Source: a virus (taxonomy: Duplodnaviria > Heunggongvirae > Uroviricota > Caudoviricetes). Taken from it: a stretch of DNA of 7,677 bases. The notes below the pieces were generated by a model, which made no database searches, was not told where the DNA came from, and saw only the letters and a program-made list of their open reading frames with translations. The stretch's first letter is position 1. Every line of letters starts with the position of its first letter. Both the position numbers and the translations under genes were made by a program. Below, one piece after another: positions 1-7,677 of this stretch. The stretch lies in IMG/VR virus record IMGVR_UViG_2681813234_000009, positions 1 through 7,677 of that record; one strand, written 5' to 3'.

Positions 1-426
1 TCAATGTACTGCCACAGCATTTCCTGCCGGGCCACCACGGTTCATCTGATTGAAACCGGCGATTGCCACTGCGACAAAATCATCAGCGTCTCTCACCAGT
101 CGTTCCCGCGTCTCCACCAACTCCCGAAAATAGACTGAACTGTGGCTGCGCATCCGGGCCACCAGCAGAGGTGGCATTGCTTTTTCGATCGCTGGTAACA
201 ACGCCTGAATTTTTTCAACCGCATCAGTGGTGTCTTTCTCCACCCAGCGGAAAATTTTCTGGGTATTACGAGCCAGGGCTTCTGGATGGCTGTCGTCGTA
301 CAGTTCCGGGGACGTCATTCCCAGTTCGAAATAAGCCCTGGTTATCTTGGCCGCCGGAACTTTTTCACCATCCGGACGCGCCCAGGCATTCATAGCCATG
401 CGGATGTGTTCATGCTTGATTTTCAT
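1..426 (-). CDS. CII-like phage regulatory protein (YdaT / CP76-type), 141 aa
   Basis: Complete ORF on the minus strand; stop codon is revcomp of nt 1-3 (tca). Lies directly downstream of the Cro-like gene with an ATGA start/stop overlap, the classic cro-cII arrangement. The N-terminus MKIKHEHI matches my recollection of YdaT-type proteins; family assignment is from memory, not a search. Confidence 0.55.
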   Translation of the reverse strand: MKIKHEHIRMAMNAWARPDGEKVPAAKITRAYFELGMTSPELYDDSHPEALARNTQKIFRWVEKDTTDAVEKIQALLPAIEKAMPPLLVARMRSHSSVYFRELVETRERLVRDADDFVAVAIAGFNQMNRGGPAGNAVAVH

Positions 427-650
427 GAATCATTCTTTCCTTCGTTCAAGGTGTTATCCTTCTTTTTGTAAAGTTCTGGGTTCAAAGATAATTTTCCCTT
501 GGAGTATGCGGCAGCTTCCGCGGCCCTCCCCTTGGGAACTATTTCACCAGGACGTTTGCGCCACATGTATATAGCTTCACGGGTTATCCCATAAAAATCG
601 GCAACTCTCTGAACAGAGCCAAAAAACTGGACAAGTTCATCAACTCGCAT
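423..650 (-). CDS. Cro-like HTH transcriptional regulator (YdaS/DicC-type), 75 aa
   Basis: Small basic protein with an HTH-like segment (VADFYGITREAIYMWRK). Strong SD AGGAGG 5 nt upstream of the ATG on the minus strand (plus-strand 651-660 ttcaccctcc). Divergent from the CI-like repressor across an operator-rich intergenic region. Confidence 0.7.
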   Translation of the reverse strand: MRVDELVQFFGSVQRVADFYGITREAIYMWRKRPGEIVPKGRAAEAAAYSKGKLSLNPELYKKKDNTLNEGKNDS

Positions 651-742
651 TTCACCCTCCTAAAACTAAGTATTTTTAGATTAAAGGATAATTTTTTTTA
701 GGTCAATGCAATCTAAAATAATTTATATTCAATTCACGGGAG
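651..742. promoter_or_regulatory. Divergent promoter/operator region between cro-like and cI-like genes (OR analog)
   Basis: 92 bp AT-rich intergenic region between divergent regulators. Contains a 20 bp imperfect palindrome CTAAAACTAAGTATTTTTAG (660-679, 16/20 symmetric) and a second inverted pair TTTTAG(695-700)...CTAAAA(713-718). Individual -10/-35 elements were not confidently resolved. Confidence 0.55.
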
Positions 743-1393
743 ATGATGATGGAAAGCCTTGGCATTAGGCTTAAGAGACTCAGAAAAGACAAGGGACTGA
801 CCCAAGTCGAACTGGGCAAGCTTTCTGGCGTAACAGGGGTAACTATAGGGTACTGGGAGAAAGACCTAAACGAACCCGGTAGCAAAGCTCTTAGTAAATT
901 AGCCCAAGCACTAGGAACTACTGAGTCCTATCTCCTATATGGAGTATCGTCTACTGAACCTACCCTTGTGCAGAACAATTCAGGCACCCAAATCCCCTAT
1001 CTTTCATGGGGGGAAGCAATTTCTTTCCTAATTTTAGAAGGAGAGAAAACTATGGGAAATGCCGACAGAATCACCACATTCTTTGACGTCAAGGAGGGGG
1101 ATTTTGCCGTTTCAATGCCTGATGACACTATGCACAACCCATCAGGGTCGCCAAGCATTCCGGTTGGTGCCACAGTGATCATGAGGCCTAGAGAAAAATA
1201 TAAAAATGGTAGTATCGTCGCTGTAATAGTCCCAGATCCGCTTACAAACGAACCATCTATGACTATAAAAAAATTAGTCATCGACGGAAAACTCGTGTAT
1301 TTAAGCCCCCTCAATCCTCGCTATCAATCGTCCTTACTGACACCTGAATGTAAAATTGTTGCTGTAGCAAAAGGTGTGCAGTTCAGCCTATAG
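743..1393 (+). CDS. CI-like prophage repressor, N-terminal HTH (XRE-type) plus C-terminal S24 (LexA/CI-like) peptidase domain, 216 aa
   Basis: N-terminus LKRLRKDKGLTQVELGKLSGVTGVTIGYWE is a typical HTH. C-terminal region aligns by eye to the lambda CI/LexA C-terminal domain (AVSMPDD Ser motif, NGSIVAV, TIKKL Lys motif, LSPLNP). Three consecutive ATGs at 743/746/749; GGGAG at 738-742 gives best spacing for the third ATG (749). Confidence 0.85.
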   Translation: MMMESLGIRLKRLRKDKGLTQVELGKLSGVTGVTIGYWEKDLNEPGSKALSKLAQALGTTESYLLYGVSSTEPTLVQNNSGTQIPYLSWGEAISFLILEGEKTMGNADRITTFFDVKEGDFAVSMPDDTMHNPSGSPSIPVGATVIMRPREKYKNGSIVAVIVPDPLTNEPSMTIKKLVIDGKLVYLSPLNPRYQSSLLTPECKIVAVAKGVQFSL

Positions 1394-1416
1394 CTTCCAC
1401 TTTGTTTTTCAATCAG

Positions 1417-1441
1417 AGGTCGGCTTTGTCGACCTTTTTTA
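1417..1441 (+). terminator. Rho-independent terminator after the cI-like gene
   Basis: Stem AGGTCG(1417-1422) / CGACCT(1430-1435) with a 7-nt loop, followed by TTTTTT (1436-1441), 24 nt after the cI-like stop. Confidence 0.6.
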
Positions 1442-1463
1442 AATATATCTAGATCACACTTGA

Positions 1464-1493
1464 CTATAAAACTAAATAGATTTAGTTTTATAG
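1464..1493. promoter_or_regulatory. 30 bp palindromic operator-like site (possible OL analog) downstream of cI-like gene
   Basis: ctataaaactaaat-ag-atttagttttatag: two perfect 14 bp inverted arms around a 2 bp centre. Shares the 9-mer TAAAACTAA with the OR region (661-669). Preceded by TTGACT (1460-1465). Confidence 0.4.
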
Positions 1494-1669
1494 TATACCA
1501 CCCCACCCCGCCCCACAGAACGCAGGGCAATACTTCGAGTTACCAGGCAGTGGTCAGGGGTTAAGTAGCCAGCCCGAGGCGTAAGAACATGACGGCAGGG
1601 TTCAACTTTAATAACTATGCAGCAGGTTTTTGTTCCGCTACCCCGGCGTTAAGGGGACATGAGGTCAAC

Positions 1670-1822
1670 ATGGATACTATCGATCTTGGCAACAACGAAT
1701 CTCTGGTATACGGCGTGTTTCCCAACCAGGACGGCACATTCACCGCGATGACGTATACCAAAAGCAAAACGTTTAAAACCGAATCTGGCGCGCGTCGCTG
1801 GTTAGCCAGAAATACTGACTGA
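1670..1822 (+). CDS. ydfA: YdfA-like small prophage protein (DUF1391-type), 50 aa
   Basis: Internal ATG at 1670 with GAGG 5 nt upstream. Product MDTIDLGNNESLVYGVFPNQDGTFTAMTYTKSKTFKTESGARRWLARNTD matches my recollection of Qin-prophage YdfA. The longer track ORF from 1589 has no obvious RBS. Confidence 0.6.
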   Translation: MDTIDLGNNESLVYGVFPNQDGTFTAMTYTKSKTFKTESGARRWLARNTD

Positions 1823-1833
1823 TGAGGTTGACT

Positions 1834-2208
1834 ATGGAATTTAAAGATTTACCAATGCAATTCCAGGAAATGGCAGCGAATATAGTTCGTTCCCAACTGG
1901 CGACTCTTGACCTGAGTACCGTAGAAAAAGAAACCATAGATAATATATCCGGTAACGTGCGCCGTGCCTTTATCGGGTTGTACGAAGAGAAGCAGCACTC
2001 TGATAAGCATGATTCCTCTGAAAAATACTTCCTGGAATTAATGGATATCATTAACAAGGGGTTTGGTTTGTTGATGGAAAAGAAAGGGATTCGAATAGAA
2101 CCCCTTAAAAACCATTTTACTGAGTGCAACATTAATTCCTGTGATTTAAAGCATCCCACTTCAGATGGGAAAGTTGAAGCCAACTATAAAATATCAATTA
2201 ATCATTAA
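1834..2208 (+). CDS. Hypothetical protein, 124 aa (start chosen at MEFKDL with GAGG RBS)
   Basis: ORF track 1822-2208; ATG at 1834 is preceded by GAGG (1823-1826). Protein is charged and soluble-looking with no family I recognise. The 3' half is distinctly AT-rich. Confidence 0.5.
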   Translation: MEFKDLPMQFQEMAANIVRSQLATLDLSTVEKETIDNISGNVRRAFIGLYEEKQHSDKHDSSEKYFLELMDIINKGFGLLMEKKGIRIEPLKNHFTECNINSCDLKHPTSDGKVEANYKISINH

Positions 2209-2265
2209 GTTCTCCACGGGTAAGGTGGAGAACATGCGCCGGACACGGATAAATCTCCGGCATGC
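2209..2265. terminator. Putative bidirectional terminator between convergent genes
   Basis: Perfect 9 bp stem GTTCTCCAC(2209-2217) / GTGGAGAAC(2225-2233) with a 7-nt loop, directly after the plus-strand stop. A second imperfect hairpin CATGCGCCGG...CCGGCATG (2233-2265) is followed by CTCTTT. Sits between the plus-strand ORF end (2208) and the minus-strand gene end (2287). Confidence 0.4.
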
Positions 2266-2286
2266 TCTTTAACATTCTGGATATTC

Positions 2287-2733
2287 CTAACTACAAAGAA
2301 ATCGCATCAATTTAGATTTTGTGGGCAGCTTCTCTTGTTGTTCGATGGAAACGCCTATTTTGATCTGTGTTTTTAAGATCGCAATATCTTTAAGTGATGA
2401 CCAAATATGAACATCCGTTTTTTCCAGAATTTTTAACTGCATTTTCAATTCAGAATCAGAATATTTTTCTGCATCATCAAAAAGCTGCAAATATTCTGCG
2501 GATTTTCTCATGGCGTTACCTGACTTTTGTCCGAATCCATAAATCGTTTGGACGGTTGCGATCACAACAATAAAAACGCCAGAAATTTCCGGAATGAATC
2601 CGCCAATGACAGATGAACCGAGGATAATACTCACCACTGAGAGAAGTTTATCGAGACGACCAGTTGCTACCGAAAATAGTTGCTCAAGAAAATAGCCATA
2701 TAAAATTCTGTCAAGAATATCATCCCGGTCCAT
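2287..2733 (-). CDS. Small membrane protein with two predicted transmembrane helices, 148 aa; function unknown (candidate exclusion/abortive-infection effector)
   Basis: Minus-strand ORF with AGGTGA 6 nt upstream of the ATG. Two hydrophobic helices (LLSVVSIILGSSVIGGFI and GVFIVVIATVQTIYGF) separated by a short PEIS turn, then a roughly 80-aa charged helical C-terminus. Strongly AT-rich versus flanking phage genes and opposite in orientation to the surrounding operon. Confidence 0.65.
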   Translation of the reverse strand: MDRDDILDRILYGYFLEQLFSVATGRLDKLLSVVSIILGSSVIGGFIPEISGVFIVVIATVQTIYGFGQKSGNAMRKSAEYLQLFDDAEKYSDSELKMQLKILEKTDVHIWSSLKDIAILKTQIKIGVSIEQQEKLPTKSKLMRFLCS

Positions 2734-3194
2734 ACATCATCACCTGCTTGTTTGGTTGTTGCTGTTCCCCCTCTCCTCCGAAGGAGCTGGAGATGGTTTT
2801 GGTCGAATGTTTTTCTCTGGTATGTGATCCCAGACTGTTTTATGTGTCGAATTGCCACCACCTGCTTGTGCTCTTTGCTCTGTCATATGATTTCCTTGGA
2901 TCGTTGGGGATATCCAGATTATACAGATTTCTTGTCGTTGGGGAATGACAGGAACCACCTCGCCTGACGTGGTTAAAAGCAGGCACACAACACGAAAGCG
3001 CACGGCGAAGTCATTTCTCCCTCTGTTGCGTGTCGCCGGTATCTTCGACCGTGCGCTTCCGGTTGTGGCACTCCGCGAAATGGCGCGGCGGTAAGTATGG
3101 CGGGGTTATCCTTACCCCCACTGGTAGCACCGGGTTGTCAGGTTGACCATACGCCTGAGTGACAACCCCGCCACAACATCTCCATGTTGAGGCT

Positions 3195-3249
3195 TGTGTG
3201 AGACCTTTGGCGGCATCAGTTTAATTGCTGGCTGATGTCCGCCCTTTTT
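3195..3249 (+). ncRNA. dicF: DicF-like small RNA (3' end defined by intrinsic terminator); 5' end approximate
   Basis: Terminator stem GGCGGCATCAG(3209-3219) / CTGATG(T)CCGCC(3232-3243), 11 bp with one bulge, then CTTTTT (3244-3249). Positioned immediately upstream of dicB as in Qin. Sequence and architecture resemble my recollection of E. coli DicF, but the 5' part differs. Confidence 0.5.
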
Positions 3250-3253
3250 AAAG

Positions 3254-3413
3254 TGAATTTTGTGATGCGGTGAATGCGGCTAAGCGCACGCGGAACAGTT
3301 AAAAAGCGATTAGTTCCCCCGTATCGGGGGTTTATGGGTTTCCCTGTATCCGGCGTTAATTGTTAACTGGTTAACGTCACCTGGAGGCACCAGGCACCGC
3401 ATCACAAAATTCA
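3254..3413. repeat. 19 bp perfect inverted repeat pair flanking about 120 nt of the dicB leader
   Basis: tgaattttgtgatgcggtg (3254-3272) is the exact reverse complement of caccgcatcacaaaattca (3395-3413). Enclosed region holds the hairpin CCCCCgtatcGGGGG and GTTAAC-tg-GTTAAC. The right arm ends 17 nt before the dicB ATG. Confidence 0.7.
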
Positions 3414-3430
3414 TTGTTGAGGATGCGATA

Positions 3431-3613
3431 ATGGAAACGTTATTACCAAACGTCAATACGTCTGAAGGTTGTTTTGAAATTGGTGTCAGAATCAGTAACC
3501 CTGTATTTACTGAAGATGCCATTAACAAGAGAAAACACGAACGGGAGCTATTAAATCAAATATGCATTGTTTCAATGCTGGCCCGTTTACGCCTGATGCA
3601 AAAAGGACGCTGA
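3431..3613 (+). CDS. dicB: Cell division inhibitor DicB, 60 aa
   Basis: METLLPNVNTSEGCFEIGVRISNPVFTEDAINKRKHERELLNQICIVSMLARLRLMQKGR closely matches my recollection of E. coli Qin DicB. GAGGA RBS upstream. Preceded by the DicF-like element, the same order as in Qin. Confidence 0.9.
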   Translation: METLLPNVNTSEGCFEIGVRISNPVFTEDAINKRKHERELLNQICIVSMLARLRLMQKGR

Positions 3614-3615
3614 CA

Positions 3616-3819
3616 ATGAATACAGTATTTGCACTCGTTCTGACAGTTTTTCTTAATACAGGCGAGCCAGTCGATCTTGTTATTGGTATACATGACTCAA
3701 TGAAAGAATGCATGGCTGCCGCAGCGGAACAGAAAATTCCCGGCAACTGTTATCCGGTTGATAAAGTTATTCACATGGACAATAACGAAATCCCGGCAGG
3801 ACTTAAAACAGCACCGTAA
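3616..3819 (+). CDS. ydfD: YdfD-like small membrane/lysis protein, 67 aa
   Basis: ATG at 3616, 2 nt after the dicB stop. MNTVFALVLTVFLNTGEPVDLVIGIHDSMKECMAAAAEQKIPGNCYPVDKVIH... has a hydrophobic N-terminal helix and matches my recollection of Qin YdfD. The longer track ORF from 3562 overlaps dicB and is unlikely. Confidence 0.8.
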   Translation: MNTVFALVLTVFLNTGEPVDLVIGIHDSMKECMAAAAEQKIPGNCYPVDKVIHMDNNEIPAGLKTAP

Positions 3820-3899
3820 TTAATATCCGGTTTCATTTTTATATGCCAGCAATGGCAGGGATTTGTTCACCCTTAAATCTGTAATGAGGTTAAAACAAA

Positions 3900-6371
3900 A
3901 TGAGTAAAGTCTTTATTTGCGCCGCCATTCCGGACGAACAGGCAATAAAGGAAGAAGGTGCAGTCGCTGTAGCCACTGCCATTGAAGCCGGCGACGAACG
4001 CCGCGCCCGAGCCAAATTTACCTGGCAATTCCTGGAGCAATATCCGGCTGCTCAGGACTGCGCTTATAAATTTCTTGTTTGCGAGGATAAACCCGGCATG
4101 CCCCGCCCTGCCATCGACTCCTGGGATACCGAATATATGCAGGAAAACTGCTGGGATGAGGAATCCGCTTCCTTTATTCCGGTCGAACCAGAATCCGATC
4201 CGATGAACGTCAATTTTGACAAGCTGTCCCCTGAAGTACAGAACGCGGTCCTGGTTAAGTTCGACACATGTGAAAACATCACCGTTGATATGGTTATTAG
4301 CGCACAGGAATTGTTGCAGGAAGACATGGCAACATTCGACGGACATATCGTTGAAGCGTTGATGAAAATGCCAGAAGTTAACGCCATGTATCCGGAGCTT
4401 AAGTTGCACGCCATTGGGTGGGTTAAGCATAAATGTATTCCTGGTGCTAAATGGCCCGAAATTCAGGCAGAGATGCGCATCTGGAAAAAACGTCGCGAAG
4501 GTGAACGCAAGGAAACCGGAAAATACACGTCTGTTGTTGATCTCGCCCGCGCCAGAGCCAATCAACAGTACACTGACAATTCAACAGGAAAAATCAGCCC
4601 GGTCATTGCTGCCACTCATCGCGAATACAAGCAGACATGGAAAACACTGGATGACGAACTGGCCTACGCTCTCTGGCCTGGTGATGTGGATGCCGGAAAC
4701 ATTGACGGCAGCATCCATCGCTGGGCAAAAAATGAAGTTATCGACAACGACCGCGAAGACTGGAAGCGTATCTCGGCATCAATGCGCAAACAGCCTGATG
4801 CCCTTCGCTACGACCGACAGACTATTTTTGGCCTTGTCCGTGAACGTCCGATCGACATTCACAAAGACCCTGTGGCACTGAACAAATACATTACTGAATA
4901 CCTGACTACAAAGGGCGTGTTTGAAGATGAAGGAACAAATCAGAGCGCAACTGATACTCTCTCGTCGCCAGTACCAGAAACTGATGCAGTGGAAACGGCA
5001 ATTCCGGACAACGAAAAAACCGAATGCAAAGTTGAAGTCGAACCATCTGTAGAGCGTGAGGGGCCGTTCTACTTCCTCTTCACAGATAAGGATGGCGAAA
5101 AATATGGTCGCGCAAACAAACTTTCTGGTCTGAATAAGGCGCTGACTGCAGGGGCTACTGAAATCACGAAAGAAGAATATTTTGCCCGTAAAAACGGTAC
5201 ATACTCAGGTTCACAACAAAATACTGGTGCATCTGACACGACCGCACAACCAGAGCCGGTAAAAGTTACCGCTGACGAAGTAAACAAAATTATGCAGGCA
5301 GCCAATATCAGCCAGCCTGACGCCGATAAGTTGCTTGCTGTATCACGTGGTGAATTTGTTGCAGGGATTAGCGACCCGAATGATCCGAAATGGGTGAAGG
5401 GGATTGAAACCCGCGATTCAGTGAATCAGAACCAGCAAGAAACGGAACAGAACGACCAGAAAGCGGAACAAAACAGCCCAAATGCGTTACAAAACGAGCC
5501 AGAAACGAAACAACCTGAGCCAGTAGCGCAACAGGAAGCGGAAAAAGTCTGCACCGCCTGCGGTCAGACCGGCGGCGGCAACTGCCCTGATTGTGGTGCG
5601 GTGATGGGCGACGCAACATACCAAGAAACATTCGATGACAAGAACCAGGTTGAAGTTCAGGAAGACGATTCGGAGAAAATGGAAGGCGCTGAACATCCAC
5701 ACAAAGAGAATGCTGGCAGCGCTCAGGATCACGCCAGCGATAGTGAAACTGGCGAGACGGCAGATCCCTTAATTACGGTGAACGGTCATCACGTTATCAC
5801 ATCCACCAGCAGGACGTGTGACCATCTAATGATCGACCTTGAAACCATGGGAAAAAATCCTGATGCCCCGATTATCTCAATAGGTGCAATATTTTTCGAT
5901 CCGCAAACCGGAGATATGGGACCGGAATTTAGTAAGACTATCGATCTGGAAACTGCTGGCGGAGTCATTGATCGGGACACCATTAAATGGTGGCTTAAGC
6001 AATCACGCGAAGCGCAATCTGCCATTATGACCGATGAAATCCCGTTAGATGATGCACTGTTACAATTGCGGGAATTTATCGACGAAAACTCCGGTGAATT
6101 TTTTGTTCAGGTCTGGGGAAATGGAGCCAACTTCGACAACACGATTTTGCGCCGTTCATACGAACGGCAGGGGATCCCCTGCCCGTGGCGTTACTACAAC
6201 GATCGCGATGTACGCACAATCGTTGAGCTGGGGAAAGCCATAGACTTCGATGCCAGAACGGCTATTCCATTCGAAGGTGAGCGCCATAATGCACTTGATG
6301 ACGCCCGTTACCAGGCAAAATACGTTTCAGCAATCTGGCAAAAACTGATCCCGAATCCGGTTGATTTTTAA
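3900..6371 (+). CDS. ydfE: Large YdfE-like prophage protein, 823 aa: N-terminal YdfE-homologous region, low-complexity Q/E/N-rich linker, CxxC-x7-CxxC motif, C-terminal DEDDh-type 3'-5' exonuclease domain
   Basis: Uninterrupted 2.47 kb ORF with GAGG upstream. N-terminus MSKVFICAAIPDEQAIKEEGAVAVA... matches my recollection of K-12 YdfE. C-terminus carries DEDDh motifs: D646-x-E648 (MIDLETMG), N-FD (GNGANFDNT) and H796-x4-D801 (HNALDDARY). Cys551/554/562/565 form a CxxC-x7-CxxC motif. Confidence 0.85.
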   Translation: MSKVFICAAIPDEQAIKEEGAVAVATAIEAGDERRARAKFTWQFLEQYPAAQDCAYKFLVCEDKPGMPRPAIDSWDTEYMQENCWDEESASFIPVEPESDPMNVNFDKLSPEVQNAVLVKFDTCENITVDMVISAQELLQEDMATFDGHIVEALMKMPEVNAMYPELKLHAIGWVKHKCIPGAKWPEIQAEMRIWKKRREGERKETGKYTSVVDLARARANQQYTDNSTGKISPVIAATHREYKQTWKTLDDELAYALWPGDVDAGNIDGSIHRWAKNEVIDNDREDWKRISASMRKQPDALRYDRQTIFGLVRERPIDIHKDPVALNKYITEYLTTKGVFEDEGTNQSATDTLSSPVPETDAVETAIPDNEKTECKVEVEPSVEREGPFYFLFTDKDGEKYGRANKLSGLNKALTAGATEITKEEYFARKNGTYSGSQQNTGASDTTAQPEPVKVTADEVNKIMQAANISQPDADKLLAVSRGEFVAGISDPNDPKWVKGIETRDSVNQNQQETEQNDQKAEQNSPNALQNEPETKQPEPVAQQEAEKVCTACGQTGGGNCPDCGAVMGDATYQETFDDKNQVEVQEDDSEKMEGAEHPHKENAGSAQDHASDSETGETADPLITVNGHHVITSTSRTCDHLMIDLETMGKNPDAPIISIGAIFFDPQTGDMGPEFSKTIDLETAGGVIDRDTIKWWLKQSREAQSAIMTDEIPLDDALLQLREFIDENSGEFFVQVWGNGANFDNTILRRSYERQGIPCPWRYYNDRDVRTIVELGKAIDFDARTAIPFEGERHNALDDARYQAKYVSAIWQKLIPNPVDF

Positions 6372-6437
6372 TGTTCAACCCTGATCGCCGTCCCCGAATT
6401 ATATTGGCGGCGGTCATGCTGTAAGGCACGTGACCAC

Positions 6438-6689
6438 ATGTACGAATTAACTCTATCGCCAGCAGAGATTCAAGAGATCACGAAATACGAGCGATACACA
6501 AAACAGCAACACCAGTTAAGGCTGCACGGTATCCCATTTGTAATCGGTCCTAAAAACGAACCAATAGTTCTTCGCAGGGATATTCCACACGGACTGACTA
6601 CGATGCCAAAAGCACCTGAACTGGTTTCCGCTGAACCCGATTTTGAGGCGCTGAACAATGGGAAGACCAAGAAAAAACAAAAAAGATAA
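6438..6689 (+). CDS. xis: Putative excisionase (Xis-like), 83 aa
   Basis: Small ORF immediately upstream of int, overlapping it by 32 nt as lambda xis overlaps int. N-terminus MYELTL resembles lambda Xis MYLTL; basic C-terminal tail NNGKTKKKQKR resembles the lambda Xis tail. Weak RBS. Confidence 0.55.
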   Translation: MYELTLSPAEIQEITKYERYTKQQHQLRLHGIPFVIGPKNEPIVLRRDIPHGLTTMPKAPELVSAEPDFEALNNGKTKKKQKR

Positions 6690-7677
6690 TGCACTACCAC
6701 CGCGTGTTAGATCGAATGGTTACAGTTACGTATGGAAACCCGAAGGAAGCACAAGAACTATAGGGCTCGGAAGAGTGCGGGAAACCAGCGTAGCTAAAGT
6801 CTGGCAAAATTATGAGCTGGAAAAAGCAAAACTCCACAACATAATGACAGTAGCTAAATTATGGCACATGTTTATGGACTCCCCTGCATTTACAGAACTG
6901 GCCCCCCGAACCCAAAAAGATTATCGGCAACATCAAAGGGCATTGTTGGCAGTATTCGGAAAAGTGCTTGCTGATAATGTAAAAATTGAACAGGTAAGAA
7001 TTTTCATGGATAAGCGAGGACTTGAGAGCAAGACCCAGGCAAACCATGAACTGGCAAGTCTGAGCCGTGTATACGGATGGGGATATGAGCGTGGGTATGT
7101 GAAAAATAATCCATGCAAAGGAGTCAGAAAATTCACACTTAAAGCCCGTACTGTTTACATCACCGATGAACAGTATGCTGCAATATATGCGGAAGCAATT
7201 CCACAGTTACGTATTGCAATGGAGATATCCTATCTTTGTGCGGCAAGGCTCGGTGATGTACTCGAGCTGAAATGGCAGGATATTATGGAGAAAGGGATTT
7301 ACATTGAGCAAAACAAGACCGGCACTAAACAAATCAAGGAATGGTCTCCGCGATTACGTACGGCGATCCAGTTAGCCCGAAATGTATCTTCCGGCACATG
7401 CGAGTATGTGATCAACACAACCAAAGGCGGGAAGGTAATAGCCAAGACGCTGAACAACTGGTGGAATCAGGCTAAACGTGCAGCCGAGCAAAAAGCCGGC
7501 GTTCCGTTTGGGTGCAACTTCCATGACATAAAAGCCAAAGGGATTTCAGATTACGAAGGCAGCAGTCGCGACAAACAAATTTTCAGTGGACACAAAACAG
7601 AAAATCAGGTGTTGATTTACGATCGTAAAACCAAAATAACACCAACACTGGATTTGCCGCTTGTGGTCAGTAAGTAG
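6658..7677 (+). CDS. int: Lambda-family tyrosine integrase, 339 aa, apparently intact
   Basis: N-terminus MGRPRKNKKDNALPPRVRSNGYSYVWKPEGSTRTIGLGR parallels the lambda Int arm-binding N-terminus as I recall it (MGRRRSHERRDLPPNLYIRNNGYYCYRDPRTGKEFGLGRD). Catalytic-region motifs AARLGD (Arg), FHDIKAKG, SGHKTENQVLIYD (His...Tyr). Stop TAG at 7675-7677 is the last triplet of the window. Confidence 0.9.
   Translation: MGRPRKNKKDNALPPRVRSNGYSYVWKPEGSTRTIGLGRVRETSVAKVWQNYELEKAKLHNIMTVAKLWHMFMDSPAFTELAPRTQKDYRQHQRALLAVFGKVLADNVKIEQVRIFMDKRGLESKTQANHELASLSRVYGWGYERGYVKNNPCKGVRKFTLKARTVYITDEQYAAIYAEAIPQLRIAMEISYLCAARLGDVLELKWQDIMEKGIYIEQNKTGTKQIKEWSPRLRTAIQLARNVSSGTCEYVINTTKGGKVIAKTLNNWWNQAKRAAEQKAGVPFGCNFHDIKAKGISDYEGSSRDKQIFSGHKTENQVLIYDRKTKITPTLDLPLVVSK

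Follow-up and report, generated by a model that had tools for sequence, protein, structure and literature searches.

The window analysed here, a stretch of 7,677 nucleotides from a virus of the class Caudoviricetes (IMG/VR record IMGVR_UViG_2681813234_000009, positions 1 to 7,677), contains on its plus strand a gene (3900..6371) that codes for an 823-aa protein combining a YdfE/RecE scaffold with a DEDDh tail. Its open reading frame starts with ATG, with GAGG about 10 nt upstream; the product covers positions 1-823 of the 823 positions of the "exonuclease" profile phrog_2082, and RefSeq contains a 100% identical coding sequence at the same coordinates, named "3'-5' exonuclease". The ORF list and this identical RefSeq entry agreed with the first-pass annotation of this DNA, which had described an intact YdfE homologue of 823 aa at 3900-6371. 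Directly 3' of the gene lie, on the same strand, an excisionase gene (6438..6689; DUF4224, Pfam and PHROG "excisionase" matches) and a tyrosine integrase gene (6658..7677; Pfam Phage_integrase, identical locus in RefSeq), whose stop codon forms the last bases of the window. Upstream, and also on the plus strand, the operon partners are dicB (3431-3613) and a ydfD-like DUF1482 gene (3616-3819 as read by RefSeq), together spanning 3431..3819. The exonuclease gene is the final gene of this repressor-controlled early-left (dicB) operon, preceding xis-int, and no promoter-like site was found directly 5' of it. At the gathering threshold, Rfam detected no RNA in the window; DicF was seen just under threshold in a sensitive Rfam scan.

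No gene of the RecT/Bet/Erf type was found between the repressor and int in the window (ORF list, Pfam and PHROG), nor in the corresponding region of strain TK3896 and phage vB_EcoS-813R8, and none was present across the whole genome of phage mEp460. Since xis follows the exonuclease gene directly, the arrangement is the one initially described, i.e., an exonuclease gene adjoining xis-int without a neighbouring annealase gene. A Chi octamer, GCTGGTGG, lies within the exonuclease gene at 5803..5810 on the minus strand, which is the "top" strand of the conventional phage map. The genome of mEp460 is Chi-rich, and one of its seven top-strand Chi sites is equivalent to the gene-internal Chi of the window.

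The C-terminal part of the protein (aa 642-813; 5823..6338, plus strand) was assigned to the DEDDh 3'-5' exonucleases on the basis of its Pfam profile match, its match to DexA, alignments, and its identity to gp34 of phage epsilon34 (see below). The profile search against DEDDh/Rv2179c-like models, which had been proposed as a check, returned PF16473 (Rv2179c-like) with E=1.6e-67 and a score of 227.1 bits (cut-off, 27); the match spanned profile positions 2-177 of 177. The DEDDh pentad is complete and is encoded on the plus strand by the codons for D646 (5835-5837), E648 (5841-5843), D746 (6135-6137), H796 (6285-6287), and D801 (6300-6302). These residues form the motifs Exo I (D646-x-E648), Exo II (N-F-D746), and Exo III (H796-x4-D801), and in alignments with T4 DexA and five other members the catalytic columns were invariant across T4 DexA, EcD-like, phage F1055, and Kluyvera homologues, in accordance with the D-x-E, N-FD, and H-x4-D motifs noted at first. 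The nearest sequence match of the tail in the PDB was T4 DexA (8kel, E=1.5e-6). These results indicated that the tail is a complete DEDDh (DnaQ-like) 3'-5' exonuclease domain of the phage Rec-module/DexA type, with a predicted exonuclease activity.

The AF2 model and the sequence showed that the non-catalytic scaffold, of approximately 630 residues, has four small modules that are folded, together with a GISDPNDPKW motif and a Cys4 ribbon; disordered linkers connect these parts, all of which are encoded on the plus strand. Module 1 (aa 1-100; 3900..4199) is an alpha/beta domain that is part of the YdfE-type head, and module 2 (aa 105-204; 4212..4511) is a helical domain modelled with pLDDT 81-93 and showing a dN/dS of 0.13 versus the mEp460 copy. 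Module 3 (aa 245-340; 4632..4919; pLDDT 84-90), also helical, is common to RecE, with BLASTP similarity to RecE starting at aa 262. Module 4 (aa 388-432; 5061..5195; pLDDT 79-87) is a small beta-hairpin/helix module in which G388, P389, F390, and Y391 were invariant in 59 sequences. Further downstream are a conserved motif, DADKLL..RGEF..GISDPNDPKWVKG (aa 472-500; 5313..5399), nearly the same in Rac RecE by BLASTP; a zinc-ribbon-like Cys4 motif, C551-x2-C554-x7-C562-x2-C565 (5550..5594; sequence and RecE alignment), which is common to RecE and probably binds a metal; and an acidic low-complexity linker (aa 573-640; 5616..5819) with the tail-swap joint at aa 626, as located by alignment with RecE. 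Structure prediction and structure-based searching, both suggested in the first-pass annotation, were run on the scaffold: the former provided models of the modules, and the latter returned no informative structural neighbour. Sequence and profile searches of the PDB with the scaffold family gave no match either.

Rac RecE (exodeoxyribonuclease VIII) and the 823-aa protein are alike in being large early-left-operon proteins adjoining xis-int. By BLASTP, both proteins are 39% identical over aa 262-626, with near identity over 473-626, and by megablast recE DNA is 84-87% identical to bases 1362-1874 of the exonuclease gene. The similarity ends at aa 626, exactly where the PD-(D/E)xK domain of RecE starts. 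The RecE equivalog NF007259 of NCBIfam scored 280.1 bits versus a cut-off of 1269, aligning aa 238-626 to profile positions 261-603 of 877 only. The score below the equivalog cut-off and the end of the similarity at aa 626 bore out the view that this nuclease differs from the PD-(D/E)xK 5'-3' type of RecE. The heads of the two proteins differ as well: that of RecE is PF06630 (Exonuc_VIII), which Pfam did not match in the 823-aa protein but did match in RecE-headed relatives, whereas the 823-aa protein has a head of the YdfE type. As to the tails, that of RecE is a PD-(D/E)xK 5'-3' dsDNA exonuclease and that of the 823-aa protein a predicted DEDDh 3'-5' exonuclease; when the RecE nuclease domain was used as phmmer query, it found other family members, none of them with a DEDDh tail. 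In Rac, recE is followed by recT, whereas in the window the exonuclease gene is followed by xis and there is no recT. Since about 365 central residues, including the Cys4 ribbon, are homologous to the non-catalytic part of RecE, a region for which reviews give no function, the name "RecE" is no pure misnomer. Judged by its sequence, the 823-aa protein is built on a RecE-type scaffold on which the catalytic tail has been exchanged, and we are highly confident in describing its architecture as a scaffold plus a DEDDh tail. Every element of the initial description that could be checked (a YdfE homologue, a DEDDh tail, no RecE nuclease, and no annealase) has held.

In K-12-type genomes, ydfE corresponds to bases 1-767 of the gene with 94.5% identity, followed by IS2 and then by the intQ pseudogene. 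As the match stops at base 767 before IS2, K-12 ydfE is, as the first-pass annotation had stated, a remnant truncated by an insertion element. The IS2 cut maps to bases 4666/4667 of the window (aa 255/256), within module 3, and K-12 YdfE lacks everything past aa 255, so that its module 3 is incomplete and it has no GPFY module, zinc ribbon or exonuclease. The literature on ydfE is essentially empty, with no activity, substrate or phenotype reported for the protein. The domains themselves are already catalogued and not new to databases, as "3'-5' exonuclease" in PGAP and as YdfE_N and YdfE_C in Pfam; precomputed matches to PF27430 (YdfE_N) and PF27432 (YdfE_C) are found on homologues more than 90% identical to the 823-aa protein. 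DnaQ-type nuclease genes adjoining int in lambdoid phages were also remarked on in a 2025 paper. Copies covering at least 80% of the gene were present in 3,532 of the 5,426 complete E. coli genomes (65%), with 90-99% DNA identity, and a single 90%-identity cluster contained 23,183 member sequences. Given this cluster size and genome spread, the 823-aa ORF is not a chance ORF. EHEC prophages are among the carriers of the gene, the full-length gene was also found in the viable phage mEp460, and the same architecture occurred in Kluyvera and other genera with 60-74% tail identity.

The family is small, modular, and restricted to Enterobacterales. Two heads (YdfE-type and RecE-type) are combined with swappable tails, namely DEDDh, PD-(D/E)xK, a Rad52-like annealase fold, and a fourth type. 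The same DEDDh tail, 97% identical, was also found on a RecE-type head, and near-identical linker DNA flanks the tail; the 823-aa protein arose through module shuffling. BLASTP and hhalign detected no similarity between gp36, the annealase of epsilon34, and the Rad52-like tail fused to the scaffold; a relationship between them is suggested by the fold, for which the Rad52-like tail was modelled, and by a sub-threshold Pfam match. Overall dN/dS was 0.27, with values of 0-0.15 in the folded modules and 0.57 in the linker (aa 573-640), the least constrained segment; the values for the DEDDh tail, 0.38 and 0.69, carry little weight because the pairs differ at only 7-12 codon positions.

Among the nucleases compared, gp34 of Salmonella phage epsilon34 was 56% identical to the tail over its whole length (E=3e-72) and matched PF16473 at 246 bits. 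A canonical lambdoid Rec module includes it as its "DnaQ-type" nuclease (PMC12315714). Both gp34 and the 823-aa protein belong to the same Pfam family and are encoded in the early-left operon, but gp34 is a free-standing protein of 182 aa located between Abc2, SSB, and a Rad52-family annealase, whereas the 823-aa protein bears a 630-aa scaffold, is encoded beside xis-int, and lacks a partner of the annealase, SSB or anti-RecBCD kind. The partner genes by which PMC12315714 recognizes a Rec module are absent from the window and from mEp460, and the exonuclease gene is int-proximal; int-proximal DnaQ-type nucleases are explicitly not counted there as Rec-module genes, and such 3'-5' nucleases are stated usually to inhibit recombination (PMC12315714). 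Free-standing proteins 56-61% identical to the tail occupy the same int-proximal slot without a scaffold, and the tail may therefore act without it.

The only biochemically characterised relatives are T4 DexA (PDB 8kel/8ken; 23-25% identical to the tail) and EcD (37-38%). Both are 3'-5' DNA exonucleases with catalytic residues common to the tail and, unlike the scaffold-fused tail, both are free-standing (227 and about 189 aa, respectively). EcD was taken to be a 189-aa protein, MIDTET...TPFLNI, on the strength of matches to both cloning primers (that at the 3' end being near-exact) and of its Ala78; the reverse primer alone led to a chance match to an unrelated methyltransferase. EcD sits in a different small integrative element, in which the neighbours resemble, by eye, a primase, a Dam-type methylase, and an integrase. 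The namesake of PF16473, Rv2179c (RNase AS) of M. tuberculosis, is by profile a member of the same Pfam family as the tail; it is an RNA-specific exoribonuclease that, unlike the 823-aa protein, stands alone and is not carried by a phage. PDB searches with the single sequence or the family profile retrieved DexA and no chain named Rv2179c or RNase AS.

From its last place in a repressor-controlled operon before xis-int, the gene would be expected to be expressed on induction or infection and not in a quiescent lysogen. We tentatively favour, at somewhat less than an even chance, a role for the protein as a 3'-5' DNA exonuclease that is tethered by its scaffold and attacks DNA ends in lytic growth, and the comparisons lean to DNA-end processing or recombination. 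The tail would strip nucleotides from exposed 3' termini of DNA, be they single-stranded tails, flaps or the ends of duplexes, and the scaffold would keep it at DNA ends or at those recombination or replication intermediates on which RecE and the annealase fusions work. Because Chi sites abound in the phage lineage, which has neither an annealase nor Exo/RecE nor Gam, the nuclease would cooperate with RecBCD/RecA of the host; it could, for instance, trim back 3' overhangs and so turn the ends into RecBCD substrates. What we infer in this proposal is that the substrate is DNA, when the gene is expressed, that the scaffold serves for targeting, and that recombination is involved. It is not evident how the protein would promote recombination, because a 3'-5' exonuclease would destroy the 3' tails used by RecA and annealases. 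The annealase, the usual partner, is missing at the exonuclease locus, which also counts against the favoured role.

Rather unlikely, in our view, is that the protein is a superinfection-exclusion or anti-phage nuclease, attacking the 5hmC DNA of rival phages or the 3' ends of RNA phages and sparing its own prophage genome. EcD ("HREX"), the DexA-family homologue of E. coli, is 5hmC-specific and reportedly digests the DNA of T4 and protects E. coli (PMC12153337), and prophage-borne ISG20-like DEDDh exonucleases (TONDO), often with an auxiliary domain, were reported to act against RNA-phage 3' ends. TONDOs, however, come from another DEDDh branch (ISG20/cd06127) and are shorter than 500 aa, and the tail is nearer to the Rec-module nuclease (56%) than to EcD (38%). 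DexA W152 and D169, reported as necessary for 5hmC DNA (PMC12153337), are not kept in the 823-aa protein, where they align with Y766 and K779, the latter a less certain counterpart because its column adjoins an alignment gap; the EcD-like protein keeps W and E. The tetramer-forming D90 of DexA, which is Ala78 in EcD (PMC12153337), is still Asp (D718), and the counterpart of S87 is Pro (P715). PADLOC-DB 2.0 gave just a generic Cas-associated "DEDDh" model at 23-28 bits, with no system context in the window, and a repressor-controlled lytic operon with no promoter-like site directly upstream of the gene is a poor place for a lysogen defence gene.

We give little credence to a host-takeover or nucleotide-salvage nuclease that would finish the breakdown of host or broken DNA to mononucleotides in lytic growth, like the classical role of DexA. 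The gene does lie in an early lytic operon, and T4 DexA, the nearest solved homologue, is annotated for host DNA degradation and has a scavenging role (PMC12153337). Against this, identity to DexA is just 23-25%, the operon has no partner endonuclease (ORF list, Pfam and PHROG), and a 630-aa RecE-type scaffold under purifying selection is not needed for bulk degradation. Lambdoid phages are not known to degrade host DNA. An RNA substrate is conceivable because Rv2179c, from which the Pfam family takes its name, is an RNase, and PGAP also uses the name "3'-5' exoribonuclease"; the protein could be an RNA exonuclease that, like Rv2179c, acts on RNA 3' ends, or else a counter-defence enzyme directed at small nucleic acids made by host immunity, such as retron msDNA, DRT cDNA or linear oligonucleotide signals. 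DEDDh enzymes are described as often indifferent to sugar chemistry (PMC11706625), and a 2026 preprint reports that the host 3'-5' exonuclease SbcB controls a DRT defence system. Nevertheless, the PDB searches led to DexA, the characterised relatives DexA and EcD are DNases, and the other partners of the scaffold are all DNA-recombination activities, which make such a function improbable. Finally, the protein could have no selected function and be a chimeric by-product of recombination between a recE-like and a free-standing DEDDh gene, carried in defective prophages. Many copies do sit in cryptic prophages, truncation is widespread, as in K-12 ydfE and in PHROG families that consist of fragments, and the divergence among copies is mosaic, pointing to frequent recombination. 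This seems very improbable in view of the full-length ORF kept in so many complete genomes and in mEp460, the low dN/dS overall and in the folded modules, the intact catalytic residues, and the same architecture in Kluyvera and other genera.

The early-left operon encodes no DNA-transaction protein other than the 823-aa protein, and phages of this class are proposed to depend on RecBCD and Chi of the host; the 823-aa protein is therefore the obvious candidate for a phage-side factor in such a strategy. A broader and distinctly speculative proposal, which we consider unlikely, is that the YdfE/RecE scaffold is a general platform that brings whichever tail it bears (5'-3' nuclease, 3'-5' nuclease or Rad52-like annealase) to a single shared site or host partner at DNA ends. 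The DEDDh version would then represent a new phage strategy, with a 3'-5' resection enzyme on a scaffold taking the place of the entire Exo/annealase/Gam module and preparing the ends of phage DNA for the RecBCD-Chi pathway of the host. If true, this would give the N-terminal two thirds of RecE a function that can be tested. The binding partner of the scaffold should be common to the 5'-3' nuclease, the 3'-5' nuclease, and the annealase fusions. The exonuclease gene, carried by roughly two thirds of the complete E. coli genomes and by viable lambdoid phages, represents a natural catalytic-domain swap on a RecE scaffold and offers a handle on the 560-residue "domain of unknown function" of RecE, a protein widely used in recombineering whose full-length form behaves unlike the nuclease domain alone. 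Many members of the family carry the label "exodeoxyribonuclease VIII" despite having another nuclease or none.

The gene at window positions 3900-6371 (+) is, in the ORF list of the window, a single unbroken ORF of 823 aa with an ATG start and a GAGG about 10 nt 5' of it. Strain TK3896 carries a 100% identical CDS at the same coordinates, named '3'-5' exonuclease' in RefSeq, in agreement with the first-pass annotation of an intact YdfE-like protein. Pfam analysis assigned aa 642-813 to PF16473 (Rv2179c-like 3'-5' exoribonuclease domain; E=1.6e-67; 227 bits, cut-off 27), and the general RNase_T model scored 21.5 bits, slightly below its cut-off. The three DEDDh motifs previously read in this C-terminal domain (D646-x-E648, N-F-D746 and H796-x4-D801) are all present, so the catalytic centre is intact, and they are invariant columns in alignments that took in T4 exonuclease DexA, an EcD-like protein, a free-standing Salmonella phage protein and homologues of other genera. 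Among 5,426 complete E. coli genomes, 4,781 match the gene, and in 3,532 of them the match extends over at least 80% of its length; a single 90%-identity protein cluster contains 23,183 members. In K-12-type genomes only gene bases 1-767 are found (94.5% identity); an IS2 fragment comes immediately after them and then the intQ pseudogene, which upholds the earlier statement that K-12 ydfE is an IS-truncated remnant.

The rest of the protein is related to RecE. The NCBIfam RecE equivalog model aligned only with aa 238-626 (positions 261-603 of the 877 in the profile), scoring 280 bits where 1269 are required, and by BLASTP the similarity to Rac RecE spans aa 262-626. The two proteins are nearly identical over aa 473-626 (84-87% DNA identity to recE), which hold DADKLL..RGEF..GISDPNDPKWVKG, a C-x2-C-x7-C-x2-C ribbon (C551, C554, C562 and C565) common to Rac RecE, and an acidic linker. 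Since the similarity ends exactly at the start of the RecE PD-(D/E)xK nuclease domain, the sequence comparison argues for a RecE-type scaffold carrying a different catalytic tail; we hold this description of the architecture, with a DEDDh tail, with high confidence, and the contrast with the RecE nuclease drawn earlier stands. The RecE-type scaffold also accounts for the name 'exodeoxyribonuclease VIII' in phage records. According to a 2023 review, the corresponding RecE region is still a domain of unknown function, not needed for nuclease activity, that raises linear-linear recombination.

Using only the scaffold (aa 1-630) as query against 1.84 billion representative proteins (E<=0.001), 253 clusters were matched, and every one that bears organism names comes from Enterobacterales. 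Representatives 450 aa or longer, 51 in all, were sorted by Pfam and by phmmer with single modules as queries. They showed two alternative heads (N-terminal parts), the YdfE type of the window protein and the RecE type (PF06630), and four or more kinds of tail: DEDDh, RecE PD-(D/E)xK, a third that is Rad52-like and a fourth of unknown kind. Almost all pairings were present: the YdfE head with the third (15 representatives), fourth (5), DEDDh (3) and PD-(D/E)xK (3) tails, and the RecE head with the PD-(D/E)xK (8), DEDDh (3), fourth (2) and third (1) tails. The DEDDh tail takes part in this combinatorial exchange with a 5'-3' nuclease tail and an annealase-like tail. In the protein of phage vB_EcoS-813R8, the head and middle are of the RecE type and share only 22-40% identity with the window protein, but over aa 465-823 the two are 93-97% identical (dS ~0.02). 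By this comparison the shuffling is recent, and its joints lie within disordered linkers (~aa 433-465 and ~aa 626). AF2, run on a scaffold alignment of 59 sequences that included relatives 30-46% identical, predicted four confident modules parted by disordered linkers: aa 1-100 (alpha/beta), aa 105-204 and aa 245-340 (both helical), and aa 388-432 (beta-hairpins and a helix, with an invariant GPFY). Databases already record the domain composition (PGAP name, PHROG 2082, Pfam YdfE_N, YdfE_C and PF16473), and the class of int-adjacent DnaQ-type nucleases was mentioned in 2025; an explicit description of the protein as a RecE scaffold whose catalytic tail has been exchanged, a combinatorial head/tail family and a Rad52-like fold of nuclease-less scaffold members were not found in the searchable literature. 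One protein of the representative library (P0202, 703 aa) has a RecE-type head (PF06630) and a zinc-ribbon region joined directly to a RecT domain (PF03837, 146 bits); if not the product of a frameshift at a recE-recT junction, it is a second kind of natural scaffold-annealase fusion.

The window covers the immunity and early-left region of a lambdoid prophage of the Qin/mEp460 type. According to the ORF list, Pfam and PHROG, YdaT-like and P22-Cro-like genes on the - strand precede an HTH and S24-peptidase repressor gene (743-1393); a DUF1391 (ydfA-like) gene, small ORFs and a reverse-oriented 148-aa ORF lie between the repressor and DicF, and DicF, dicB and a DUF1482 (ydfD-like) gene between the 148-aa ORF and the exonuclease gene. 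An excisionase (DUF4224) and a tyrosine integrase gene follow. By position the exonuclease gene is the final gene of the repressor-controlled operon ahead of xis-int; a consensus scan of the + strand found no promoter-like site directly upstream of it, and it is probably co-transcribed with the operon. TK3896 and vB_EcoS-813R8 have the same gene order (dicB, ydfD, exonuclease, xis, int), as does mEp460_ev081, a viable phage whose counterpart is 92.7% identical in protein. No RecT, Bet or Erf gene was found in the operon of any of these three, which upholds the earlier remark that a RecT/Bet-like annealase is missing nearby, whereas in the Rac prophage recT comes after recE.

Annotation of the mEp460 genome lists no annealase, no Exo and no Gam, and the one other recombination-type gene in it is RusA. 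The whole mEp460_ev081 genome contains seven Chi sites on the top strand and two on the bottom strand (~1.2 expected per strand). The window has two, 159-166 (-) and 5803-5810 (-), both on the strand equivalent to that top strand (0.18 expected), the latter inside the exonuclease gene. With this gene content and these Chi sites, the lineage fits the class with no Rec module, rich in Chi and aided by RecBCD, whose prototype LLS has mEp460-like immunity genes (PMC12315714).

The closest informative relative of the tail is epsilon34 gp34 (56% identity, E=3e-72), likewise of the PF16473 family, which sits between Abc2 (anti-RecBCD), SSB and gp36, a clear Rad52-family annealase (88.7 bits). Its gene was singled out as a legitimate 'DnaQ-type' Rec-module nuclease, and int-adjacent genes of this type were described as sporadic and not counted among Rec-module genes (PMC12315714). 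The protein is thus homologous to both a Rec-module nuclease and the RecE scaffold, and we tentatively propose scaffold-guided digestion of DNA 3' ends alongside host RecBCD/RecA. The protein would be produced early in lytic growth, the scaffold would deliver the tail to DNA ends or a partner shared with RecE and the annealase fusions, and the tail would digest 3' ends there; in an annealase-less, Chi-rich phage it might act with RecBCD/RecA, for example by trimming 3' overhangs. Two points temper this proposal: 3'-5' exonucleases usually antagonise recombination (PMC12315714), and the tail also occurs scaffold-free in the same int-proximal slot, as in phages F1055 and SKA5 (56-61% identical to the window tail).

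A rival role is superinfection exclusion, EcD- or TONDO-like. DexA is a 3'-5' DNA exonuclease, and its E. coli homologue EcD digests 5hmC-containing T4 DNA and protects cells (PMC12153337). The published primers, together with the reported Ala78, identify EcD as a 189-aa free-standing protein; the window tail shows 38% identity with EcD and 23-25% with DexA. Recognition of 5hmC in DexA was reported for W152 and D169 (PMC12153337), positions kept as W and E in EcD but occupied by Y766 and K779 in the window protein, and the Asp at the DexA D90 position is lost in EcD but kept as D718. Given these residues, the window protein would not qualify as a 5hmC-specific enzyme as described there. An RNA or counter-defence substrate and host-DNA scavenging are further alternatives; the sole solved structure found by sequence was DexA (8kel, and the S87A/D90A mutant 8ken; E=1.5e-6), and neither sequence nor family-profile searches returned PDB chains named Rv2179c or RNase AS. 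The gene might also have no selected function; dN/dS against the mEp460 copy is 0.27 overall; the folded scaffold modules give 0-0.15 and the acidic linker gives 0.57, with too few differences in the tail for judgement.

Both EcD cloning primers match, and Ala78 is present, at 6401-6982 (-) of comparison locus L029 and also in L008, L013, L023 and L026; the L029 gene is therefore, if not the 'HREX' anti-T4 exonuclease (NAR 2025) itself, an allele nearly identical to it. The longest ORF of this gene begins four codons further upstream (MNHLMIDTET...). By eye, its neighbours are primase-, Dam-type methylase- and integrase-like, which points to a small element of integrative or satellite type, a context unmentioned in PMC12153337. 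In the e14-like Escherichia phage SKA5 (L036, 4998-5571), annotation splits the free-standing DEDDh gene into two overlapping 'exodeoxyribonuclease VIII' CDSs, probably through a frameshift or sequencing error.

The window and TK3896 (L001) have identical exonuclease genes but different immunity regions, a clear mosaic junction upstream of the gene: window 1-1393 encodes the HTH and S24-peptidase repressor and its P22-Cro-like partner, and L001 5107-6451 racR/ydaS. A DicF sRNA copy lies at 3195-3244 (+) (45.4 bits, E=2.8e-8), missed by the default Rfam scan because it scores slightly below the gathering score of 48 bits; its 3' hairpin coincides with a terminator-like site at 3212-3239, and, like its counterpart in K-12 Qin, it precedes dicB (3431-3613). 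The GC-rich non-coding stretch from DicF to dicB contains a sub-threshold match to the STnc100 sRNA family at 3256-3408 (+) (35.8 bits against 47, E=1e-5). The 148-aa ORF at 2287-2733 (-), 'hypothetical' in TK3896 RefSeq, has PHROG 6315 (function unknown) as its sole match and none in Pfam. It opposes the early-left operon, encodes a long run of hydrophobic residues (...LLSVVSIILGSSVIGGFIPEISGVFIVVIATV...) and resembles an accessory ('moron') gene acquired by insertion.
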